From the sequence record KP682386.1: a stretch of 64,000 bases of DNA. One strand, given 5' to 3'. Numbering within the stretch: the stretch's first letter is position 1; each line of letters starts with the position of its first letter. This document shows positions 60,001 through 63,000 of the stretch, one piece after another. Made by a program: the position numbers. The DNA comes from Escherichia phage PA36.

Positions 60001-63000
60001 CCCTGAAGGACGGGGTTTTACAGCGCACCGGATAAGATTCGGTGTTTTGTTGAAAAATACTGTGATAACAAACAGAAAACCCGTCAGTAAGACGGGCTTA
60101 GCAAGCTGGGACGGTTACTTTAATAATTTCAGTGCCTTTACATCCACTTCAACACTGCTCAGGTCTTTATCAATTTCACCCTCAATTCTTACTTTGTCTT
60201 TCGGAGAAACATTCTGACCGGCCCATATGCTGTCATCGATATCCGTGACAATTGTCCCGCTATTGTCACGAAACTCATAACGTTCATCACCCACTTTTTT
60301 AACGATGCTCCCTTCAAGGATAACCCATGCATCATCCTTCAGTTCTTTTGCCTGCGCTACTGTTGAACGCTCTGCTTCAGGCCCTTGGAAACCGCCCTGC
60401 TGTGCAAAAGCGCCAAAAGACACACCAGAAATAAGTGCTGCAATCAATACCTTTTTCATTCATAGTCCTCTTTCAGAGATGAACATTCAAACAGCATTTT
60501 CAGTATGGTAAAGCGCGGGTGCGTTGAGGATGCCTGACACATCAGAGGTGGCGGGAGATTACTCCCCCGCTTGGTCTCTTACTTCTCAGATTCGTAGTCT
60601 ACGAAGACAGCGACCTCCGTCTGACCGGTTCGGATTCGCACCTCGCAGAGGTCTTTCCTCGTTACCAGTGCCGTCACTATGACGGTTAAACAGATGACGA
60701 TCAGGGCGATTAACATCGCCTTTTGCTGCTTCATAGCCTGCTTCTCCTTGCCTTTCGGCACGTAAGAGGCTAACCTACATGTGTTCAGCATGGATTGAGC
60801 CTCAGATTAATGTTAAGCGTCTTGCCGGACGCGTAATGTTAACTGGGGCTTTTCTCTATCTGCCGTTGGTGTTCATGCCCGAGGCAGATAGCCTCAAGCA
60901 CCCGCAGCAATTCTACTTAACTCTCCTTTTCCCGCAAACCGTTTTTATCTCCAGCGACAAATCGAATACACAACCAGCACCACCGCCATTACTGTTCCTA
61001 CATTTGCGAATGCTTCAGGCCAGGTCATTGATTCACCTTCTGCTCAATATTTTTAAGGTCATTTTCCGCATACAGTATTGCAGTTCTTGCTGCCCGCAAC
61101 CGTGCTTTGGTGTTCTTTTCTTCACGCTCGAGGCTGGCAACAGATTCTCGGAGCTGATCGTGTCTGTTATGAAGCTGTCTAATCTCTCTCACCACAGCCT
61201 CACCATCGTTCGCACACCGCAGAACATACTGAAAAGGGTCCACAACACATCCGCACTGCAAGCACAGGATAACGTGATCCTGTTCATGAACCTCAATGGC
61301 CCGATGCTTACAGCTCTGTTGTGTGTAGTTTTTTCTGCCAGTTACTGTAATGTTCAGCAGCTTCTCTTCATCGCGCTTTGGCTGCACCAGTGTGATGATA
61401 TTATCGCCTTCATTTTCCATCAGTTCACCTCCTGCGGCGGTTCTGGTAGCGGCATCCAGTGTGACGGTTTCCACGACGCACCAGGAATTATCCACCCATC
61501 ATTAGCGTCAGGATGCCCCGGGATGTAAGTCGCCCACTTCATTCGCCAGTCACCTTTCCTGTCAAACTCCACGGCAACAAGAACGGCTGTTTTGGTATCC
61601 GGCATTCGCTCACTACAACTTATCCAACCATCCGGAGTTACCGGAGAGTTGCCAGACAGCGCATTCTGCAACCGTTCCAGCTTAACGTATTCCTGAACCC
61701 TGTTTCCGTCGCACGCCTGAAGCCATTGCTCAGCCTTTTGCGCATCAGTGTGAAAGGCACAAGTGCGACCGTCATCAAATTGCATTTCGTAGAGGTTAGC
61801 AATCTGTTCAAACTGCGTGTGTGGCAACTTGTAAGTTTGGCTTACGAGTTCGGCTTCCAGTTCTGCTATGCGCTTCTCTGATGCTTCAAGTAACGCCTGC
61901 TTATCGCGTAGCGCTTCTTCCAGTTCAGCAACATGGCATTCACTATCAATAAGGTTGTTCTCTGCTGCTCCCAGCTCAACTCTCAGCTTCCCAACCGTAA
62001 GCGCAATCTCCTCGTTCTCCTGGTCGCGGCGTTTGATGTATTGCTGGTTTCTTTCCCGTTCATCCAGCAGTTCCAGCACGGTAGCCGGGTTAGCCTCTGC
62101 TATGAATTCAGCGTTGCATAAGCCTGAGCATCTGTTTCAACCAGGCAGTTAACATGACATTCTGCAATCACGCCACCGGGTTCTCCTTTCCATTTTTGGC
62201 AAACAAAAACTCCTGTTAAATTGCCGTGCTGGTTAACAGATGTATGCCCTACGATGTAGCTTCCTTTAGTTGCTTTCTCTGCCTTTTCACGCAGTGCCTG
62301 ATAGTCAATCTTGCTCATTTTTCTCTTCACTCCGGTATACAAGGATTACTACGCCCCCTCTGCTAATTGCGCGAGCTGGATCCCCTGGTTCCATGCCGTC
62401 AATACCGAAGGCTTCGAAAAATGCATCTATTGCCTTTTGGCGTTGCTCCTGCTTACGGCGTTTATTCCATTTTTTCATGAACAACAGTGACAGCCATCGT
62501 CCGCTGCAGAACATGATGTAGAAATAACCAAGGAGCGCTAGGCCGGTGTTCAGGGCTGTATCGATCGTTATCGTGGTGTTGATGTTCACTTCACACCTCT
62601 CTGTTTGTTGATAAGTTCAATATCCTGCTGGCAACTGGCGCAAGCTCTGCATCCACGAACAGCCAGGCGTCGCCGCTCATCTATCGGATCGCCACACTCG
62701 CAACAATGAGTAGCAGATGGGGCATTACTATCGGATTTGTATTTTTGCAGGGAGAGATTGCGCTGCAATTCTTCGATTTCAGCGGCGTTGTCGATGATAT
62801 CTGCCATTTTCCTTTCCTTCAGGCATGAAAAAAGGAGCCGAAGCTCCTTTGGTTTTAGAATTCGAATTGCCTTGCCCGCAGGCTTTTCAGCATTGGTCTG
62901 GCCCGCTGAACTACGAAACTCGACTGGTCAAGCCGTGCCGCCTCTCTCAGTAGCACATCTCTGTTCTTCGTCACCATGTAGATGGTCTCAAACGCAATGT

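Follow-up and report, generated by a model that had tools for sequence, protein, structure and literature searches.

The stretch analysed here, 64,000 nucleotides of Escherichia phage PA36 (KP682386.1) and referred to below as the window, carries at its right end a block of accessory genes that repeats part of the left-end early operon. Over 59600-64000 the window is 100% identical to phage PA27 (KP682380, 64,021 bp), with the same coordinates. Yin et al. assign PA27 to phage sequence type PST1-3; it is a Shiga toxin 2a (Stx2a) phage of the VT2-Sakai/Sp5 type, inserted in wrbA and carrying two copies of the insertion sequence IS629 (PMC4587872). As judged by sequence, the window is a VT2-Sakai/Sp5-type Stx2a prophage in wrbA. 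In closed O157 genomes ymdF and rutG come after the right end of the prophage, and in AP005154 the attachment site is annotated ∼20 bp past the window end; together with the position of int, this indicates that the window spans attL to just before attR. The first gene of the right-end block, and thus the one closest to attR/attP, encodes a predicted AntA/AntB antirepressor (Ant), which matches both the AntA N-domain and the P22 antirepressor C-domain. It is followed by a TraR/DksA-type zinc-finger gene, a DUF4752 gene and an interrupted gene that joins an Ea22-type N-terminus to a DUF551 C-terminus (Table 1).

A duplicated early-left module at the right end

Our results confirm that the right arm (61420-63484, minus strand) is paralogous to the TraR, Ea22 and DUF551 genes of the left operon, in direct orientation. 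When 58001-64000 was searched with BLAST against the remainder of the window, four matches were obtained, all of them co-linear, on the same strand and linking the right arm to the left early operon. The core direct repeat showed 95.2% identity over 461 columns, with 21 mismatches, 1 gap and E = 0, and its longest exact run is 140 bp (62164-62303 / 4722-4861). The TraR genes matched over 133 bp (62586-62718 vs 4873-5005, 82.7% DNA identity, E = 3e-33), and the two remaining matches were short (61598-61655 vs 2600-2657, 91.4% over 58 bp; 61423-61461 vs 2419-2457, 97.4% over 39 bp). The encoded proteins share 71% identity over 73 amino acids (aa) for TraR, 92% over 157 aa for the N-terminal part of Ea22 (residues 1-157), and 50% over 80 aa for DUF551, where the C-terminal domain of the left gene aligns with the C-terminus of the right fusion. 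A CxxC...CxxC motif is present in the translations of both TraR copies, and residues 151-216 of the right gene match the DUF551 profile (PF04448) from 1 to 68 of 68 positions (E = 2.3e-21). The 35-nt exact repeat listed in Table 1 codes for ...HWMPLPEPPQEV, the C-terminal end conserved in both DUF551 domains, and also forms the boundary with the next gene. The genes 3' of it (orf156 and orf121) displayed no homology when compared, and the same ∼40 bp were found at DUF551 gene ends in other prophages, namely L005 and the prophage of SCPM-O-B-7615 (L006).

An earlier note on this DNA had proposed the paralogy from the sequence alone, and self-BLAST, Pfam and protein identities now agree with it, the self-alignment having revealed a long repeat of high identity and not merely short or low-identity matches. 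Some details needed correction. The Ea22-like match is near-identical, as the note held, but much longer than the ∼250 bp it assigned, and the identical 35-bp stretch does have two exact occurrences, although 4-6 nt away from the positions reported (2417-2451 / 61431-61465).

The duplication as such is already known and annotated, through repeat features in GenBank and a pseudogene call by the Prokaryotic Genome Annotation Pipeline (PGAP), and is ordinary lambdoid mosaicism. In Stx2 converting phage II (AP005154) the repeat_region 'arrangement cfe; region II' corresponds to window 61869-62719 and 'arrangement cde; region IV' to 4427-5006; this is the same repeat as in the window, with no structural difference. 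The DUF4752 gene, confined to the right block and without a left-end paralog, is 'arrangement f' of that record. Stx2 converting phage I (AP004402, 933W-type) differs in having 'cde' in both regions and an intact gene. Neither the frameshift described below nor a recombination product is annotated in AP004402, AP005154 or AP005153. The 'arrangement c/d/e/f' features of these three records, which represent the Stx2 I, Stx2 II and Stx1 converting phages, are reportedly those of Sato et al. 2003.

Table 1. Positions in the window of the duplicated genes, the repeats and the surrounding features.
Feature	Position	Strand	Evidence or annotation
int	29-1363		Adjoins attL
Left DUF551-domain gene	2410-3033	-	207 aa by open reading frame; PF04448 E = 1.8e-23
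35-nt exact repeat	2423-2457 and 61427-61461		Exactly two occurrences in the window
Left Ea22 gene, intact	4103-4876		257 aa; complete Ead_Ea22 match, 122.5 bits
Core direct repeat, left copy	4418-4878		Within the intact left Ea22 gene; 'arrangement c, region IV' = 4427-4862
Left TraR/DksA-type zinc-finger gene	4873-5094	-	73 aa; PF01258 E = 7.7e-9
Hairpin upstream of left TraR, similar to that at 62827-62850	∼5150-5170	-	GGAGCU-ACA-GGCUCC then U6
ygiW/ydeI-like OB-fold gene	60115-60459		Not duplicated
hok/mok-type toxin gene (hok/sok)	60579-60791		Not duplicated; 933W annotation: hokW and SokW antisense RNA
Hypothetical gene 3' of the fusion gene	61025-61420	-	Not duplicated; PGAP WP_000426668.1
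Frameshifted Ea22-N::coiled-coil::DUF551-C gene	61420-62318	-	PGAP 'ead/Ea22-like family protein, frameshifted'
Core direct repeat, right copy	61861-62320		'arrangement c, region II' = 61869-62304
DUF4752 gene	62305-62589	-	PF15944 E = 1.7e-39
Right TraR/DksA-type C4 zinc-finger gene	62586-62807	-	73 aa; PF01258 E = 1.5e-7
Terminator-like hairpin between Ant and right TraR	62827-62850	-	AAAGGAGC-UUCG-GCUCCUUU then U-run; read from the sequence and folded
Antirepressor gene, AntA/AntB N-domain and P22_AR_C	62855-63484	-	PF08346 95.2 bits, E = 3.7e-27; PF10548 36.3 bits, E = 6e-9; PGAP 'antA/AntB antirepressor family protein'

The interrupted Ea22::DUF551 gene

The right-end 'Ea22-like' and 'DUF551-like' segments had been described as separate genes. 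Their paralogy to the left-end genes stands, but they are the two halves of a single Ea22-N::DUF551-C gene. As the earlier note observed, the right copy is split by a 1-nt difference in a T-run, and this difference (GCGTTTGC at 4668 vs GCGTTGC at 62111) is the sole indel in the repeat. The lesion lies at 62114-62115, where one A is absent on the coding strand (one T on the plus strand), and it divides the gene into an open reading frame (ORF) of 80 aa (62100-62342) and another of 219 aa (61420-62079). The 80-aa ORF matches positions 1-56 of the Ead_Ea22 profile (PF13935; 40.2 bits, cut-off 27), and the 219-aa ORF, which also contains DUF551, matches positions 69-139 (50.2 bits). The right Ea22 copy passes the PF13935 gathering score, but in an interrupted reading frame and not as a single one. 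Restoring one A on the coding strand yields a product of 299 aa.

We used this repaired protein in a tblastn search of 50,697 phage records. Uninterrupted 897-nt copies with 97.0-97.3% identity were found in 933W (NP_049538), EDL933-Stx, Stx2 converting phage I, Stx2a_F403, Stx2a_WGPS9 and Phi24B, whereas VT2-Sakai, Stx2 II, the Stx1 converting phage, all PST1 PA phages, P22/P32 and F422 displayed frameshifted copies in two pieces. The intact gene encodes 299-301 aa in the 933W clade and Phi24B. Compared with the intact gene of Stx2 phage I, the window copy has 12 differences, all of them within the first 263 nt, and one indel only. The frameshifted allele is also present in ∼100 closed genomes and ∼20 PA phages, and PGAP marks the gene as frameshifted in several assemblies. 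A single indel, close intact orthologs and the recurrence of the allele across records together argue for a true pseudogenising mutation that became fixed in the Sakai lineage. The frameshift is thus regarded as genuine and specific to this lineage, and the right copy, 97.3% identical to intact genes apart from one indel, as a predicted pseudogene. In Min27 (NC_010237 / EU311208, 61003-61901) the right-end Ea22::DUF551 gene is likewise in two pieces, spanning 899 nt with 95.7% identity, and its lesion appears to differ from the Sakai lesion.

Could the split itself be functional, either through a programmed frameshift that restores the 299 aa or through 80-aa and 219-aa fragments that are both made and act separately? 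Both ORFs are open without a second lesion, the downstream one has an in-frame GTG start at 62079, and the allele is fixed in a successful phage lineage. However, the overlap of the two frames contains neither an X XXY YYZ slippery heptamer nor a homopolymer of at least 5, and programmed -1 frameshifting and transcriptional slippage were rejected because no slippery site is present there. Moreover, the orthologs in the 933W clade and Phi24B are single-frame, so that the two-frame arrangement is not conserved, and the Sakai-type copies are all identical, which means that they carry no evolutionary signal of constraint. We therefore consider a functional split unlikely. An error of sequencing or assembly behind an intact gene, which the single-base length of the difference might suggest, is of negligible probability on comparison of the records, since a run of TT vs TTT is not error-prone, the identical allele recurs in all of the many separate deposits named above, from VT2-Sakai to the closed genomes, PGAP flags it in more than one assembly, and the intact allele is recovered in records of the sister phages of the 933W clade.

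The right gene is identified by these comparisons as the ortholog of 933W L0140 and of Phi24B ea22 (vb_24B_6c). L0140 (NP_049538) is intact and, like the window copy, is situated at the right end, with TraR and Ant immediately after it. The product of vb_24B_6c is 97.3% identical at the aa level to the repaired right-end protein and has the same Ea22-N / coiled-coil / DUF551-C architecture, its record describing an N-terminal DUF550 and a C-terminal DUF551. The two genes differ in position, as vb_24B_6c lies in the canonical exo-xis region directly after a TraR-type zinc-finger gene whereas the window copy lies beyond attP, and in state, as the window copy is frameshifted and preceded by DUF4752 whereas Phi24B ea22 is intact. 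It is vb_24B_6c that was deleted as 'ea22' by Dydecka et al., and ea22 was reported to favour lysogeny (PMC7093339).

Recombination between the repeats

The two core repeats are direct and on the same strand, and their length, identity and longest exact run are sufficient for homologous recombination. A single crossover between them in a lysogen would remove everything in between and would leave an int-xis-...-hybrid Ea22-DUF4752-TraR-Ant remnant between attL and attR, with RecA or Red as the probable recombination enzymes. Prophage decay by homologous recombination between internal direct repeats, resulting in 'grounded' or remnant prophages, is a known route. The case considered here resembles it in that one hybrid repeat is left, the att-proximal flanks are kept and the interior is lost, but differs in that the repeats are a phage-borne gene duplication and not IS elements or copies in two prophages.

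The earlier note had suggested that the repeats could mediate deletion of most of the prophage, and a natural product of this kind, with a variant left arm, bears this out. A chimeric junction query built from the window's own flanks pointed to OkiPb01680, where 65% of the query was matched because the remnant has that variant left arm. The wrbA site of OkiPb01680 contains only int, xis, two hypothetical genes, DUF551, a further hypothetical gene, Ea22 (frameshifted), DUF4752, TraR and Ant; ymdF and rutG lie beyond Ant, and the remnant from int to Ant is ∼6 kb. A query with the whole remnant, run against 5,426 complete genomes, retrieved OkiPb01680 and OkiPb01700 only. Both are O156:H25, stx1a-positive and eae-positive, and come from healthy cattle in Okinawa; their announcement is silent on prophages and wrbA (PMC12613899).

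Two lines of evidence support that this remnant arose by a crossover inside the repeat. First, compared with the window, the OkiPb01680 locus (L004) is left-type at all 102 informative sites up to 4439 / 61882 and right-type at all 366 informative sites from 4469 / 61912, which places the switch between 4440-4468 / 61883-61911. Secondly, a full-length wrbA prophage in 2014C-3061 shares with the remnant its int, xis and hypothetical proteins as well as its right arm. L004 1-5532 is 99.87% identical to the left arm of this prophage and L004 5314-9885 is 99.89% identical to its right arm, the two matches overlapping only in a 219-bp segment of the shared repeat. Two arms of one parent-type prophage joined inside the repeat are the signature of a single crossover between direct repeats. 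On this evidence the OkiPb01680/01700 element, with its one hybrid repeat and both outer flanks, is the natural product of a repeat-mediated deletion.

It is very unlikely that the Okinawa element arose instead from a natively contiguous gene order, such as SCPM-O-B-7615 has, through some unrelated deletion that truncated it. Ea22-DUF4752-TraR-Ant are indeed contiguous natively in L006; that prophage, however, is only 93% identical and sits at tRNA-Arg, whereas both arms of L004 are 99.9% identical to one wrbA prophage, including the Ant-to-attR junction and the right-copy frameshift, and overlap solely in the repeat. SCPM-O-B-7615 was also rejected as a third remnant, because it carries another prophage, located at tRNA-Arg and native and intact in its gene order, as was UTAK-1 (wrbA, int, Ea22 and Ant within 6 kb), which is a normal full-length prophage with Ant in the left arm. 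The 2014C-3061 prophage (L012; NZ_CP027548 2331000-2372000) has a Stx-phage backbone with Q, tRNAs, a nanS-p-like esterase, lysis genes and an N4-gp56 capsid; the interval from the tRNAs to the esterase contains no annotated stx, the LPD38 gene is frameshifted and ISEc20 is present.

The crossover would also release a circle, and one phage record has a corresponding shape. The phiXuzhou21-Stx2a 'complete genome' (PQ600366.1), of 56,998 bp, begins at window-equivalent 4524 and ends at 61966. When its end is joined to its start, a single hybrid Ea22 gene results, right-type at first and left-type after a switch point between 4541 and 4613, and the record is without int, xis, attP, Ant, TraR(R) and DUF4752 (a segment of ∼5 kb). 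Two readings of this record are possible, a genuine recombinant phage without int or an assembly that collapsed at the repeat. Searching E. coli genomes for the reciprocal junction yielded only other prophages with ordinary DUF551 / Ea22 / TraR early operons. A further step would be that recombination at the Ea22 repeat splits the phage into two active units, an int-less lytic genome of ∼57 kb and a ∼6 kb attL/attR element with int, xis and Ant. The topology of the phiXuzhou21-Stx2a record is that of the proposed int-less genome; nevertheless we regard such a split as a distinctly small chance. If it were true, the ∼6 kb element would be a satellite-like derivative that could still excise and use Ant to act on Stx phages already in the cell or newly entering it.

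Origin, expression and significance of the arm

In the tandem prophage of strain 111 (NZ_CP028685) and in a circular 63,329-bp record of PNUSAE146744 (NZ_CP133131, 'plasmid unnamed2') a continuous array on one strand runs across attP, in the order exo...TraR(L)-Ea22(L)-...-DUF551(L)-xis-int-attP-Ant-TraR(R)-DUF4752-Ea22::DUF551(R)-orf-hok-ygiW, and the Ea22 copies are ∼5.8 kb apart. Consequently, the 'right end' is the stretch just downstream of int, co-directional with the early-left operon, and integration at attP moves the block 57 kb from its paralogs. Strains 111/112 carry the Stx2a phage in their chromosomes as a tandem prophage, and other O157 assemblies include it as a circular extrachromosomal record (NZ_CP133131; also NZ_CP044141, 50,155 bp) in which the Ant-attP-int junction is intact.

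Window 61861-62896 takes in the 5' part of Ea22, the DUF4752 and TraR genes and the first portion of the spacer that precedes Ant. It shares 97.8% identity with a segment of the early-left operon of an unrelated prophage, that of SCPM-O-B-7615 at tRNA-Arg, in which the native order is Ant-TraR-DUF4752-Ea22(intact)-hyp-DUF551. The right arm is accordingly described, at the level of sequence, as a mosaic in which the 3' part is common to 933W/Phi24B and the 5' part with DUF4752 is SCPM-type, the switch falling inside the Ea22 'c' segment. The arm probably duplicates, in mosaic form, the TraR -> Ea22 (-> DUF551) module of the exo-xis region and was generated by recombination among lambdoid phages; the donor and the direction of this acquisition we infer.

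The origin put forward earlier for the right block, as what remains of the early region of a second phage, holds in an evolutionary sense only, as the block has the gene content of an early-left operon and is 97-98% identical to such operons in other lambdoid prophages. It does not hold in the sense of a separate element. That the block was left by a second prophage, integrated separately beside the Stx2 prophage, is highly improbable: it falls between attL and attR, the annotated attachment site being on the far side of Ant, no additional int or att is present, and it is integral to the phage in the complete records of 933W, VT2-Sakai and Stx2 I/II, in the 63-kb circular copy and in the tandem copies.

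As regards expression, GGAGC...GCUCC hairpins with a U-run are found upstream of both TraR copies, and the paralogy may extend to this terminator-like element. The hairpin at 62827-62850 was not flagged by a consensus terminator scan and is offered as a suggestion only. Hairpins before both copies suggest expression via antiterminated read-through, and we infer that the right block is transcribed by antiterminated read-through from pL across attP. In lambda, the b-region Ea genes (ea47, ea31, ea59) lie downstream of att on the pL transcript. Like the right block, they are leftward accessory genes just past attP that adjoin the early-left operon in the circular phage alone and are set apart from it in the prophage; the likeness is one of position.

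Taken as a whole, it is very probable that the right-end block is the att-proximal accessory arm of a Sakai-type phage, being at once a mosaic duplicate module, a pseudogenised ortholog and a recombination substrate. However, this explanation should be interpreted with some caution, since several results weigh against it. When 60000-64000 was scanned for promoter and terminator consensus sequences, sites were no more numerous than in shuffled sequence. The junction query from the window's own flanks had no place with at least 80% coverage in the 5,426 genomes, and no remnant with exactly this Sakai-type left arm was seen among them. The remnant that does exist is limited to one lineage, so that prophage decay by this deletion is rare; moreover, the prophage of parent type in 2014C-3061 is without annotated stx, and the case does not demonstrate the event in a toxin-carrying phage. 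Finally, PQ600366.1 is the sole candidate for the reciprocal circular product and could be an assembly collapse.

Other features of the window lie outside the duplication. The hok/mok-type and ygiW/ydeI-like genes (60115-60791) sit between the tail-associated LPD38 gene and the duplicated block. Short TTGGGGCA-type repeats flank the attachment site (61-90 and 63847-63900); AP005154 labels the right set 'arrangement g; region III', and both sets may be arm-type binding sites of the integrase. The window also contains two IS629 copies of 1,311 bp each (24350-25660 and 48861-50171), 99.9% identical and in inverted orientation, in agreement with the two IS629 of the PST1-3 phage PA27 (PMC4587872). 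If the two copies recombined, ∼23 kb of the prophage could be inverted.

In conclusion, what the presented data add to the known duplication is that the fusion is one gene, orthologous to Phi24B ea22, that its frameshift is specific to the Sakai lineage, that there is one natural deletion product with a mapped crossover, and that assemblies call for caution. Phages of the 933W/Sakai type carry two Ea22-type genes, of which the Phi24B-type one is a predicted pseudogene in the Sakai lineage, and this is relevant to work on ea22 in Stx phages. When Stx2a phages are assembled from short reads, the 460-bp repeat can cause collapse or false circularisation, and one 'complete genome' is without int/attP at exactly this place. 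The decay of a wrbA prophage to a small int-Ant remnant, documented by a natural product but rare, bears on polymerase chain reaction (PCR) tests of wrbA occupancy and on isolates in which the site is occupied but no phage is found.

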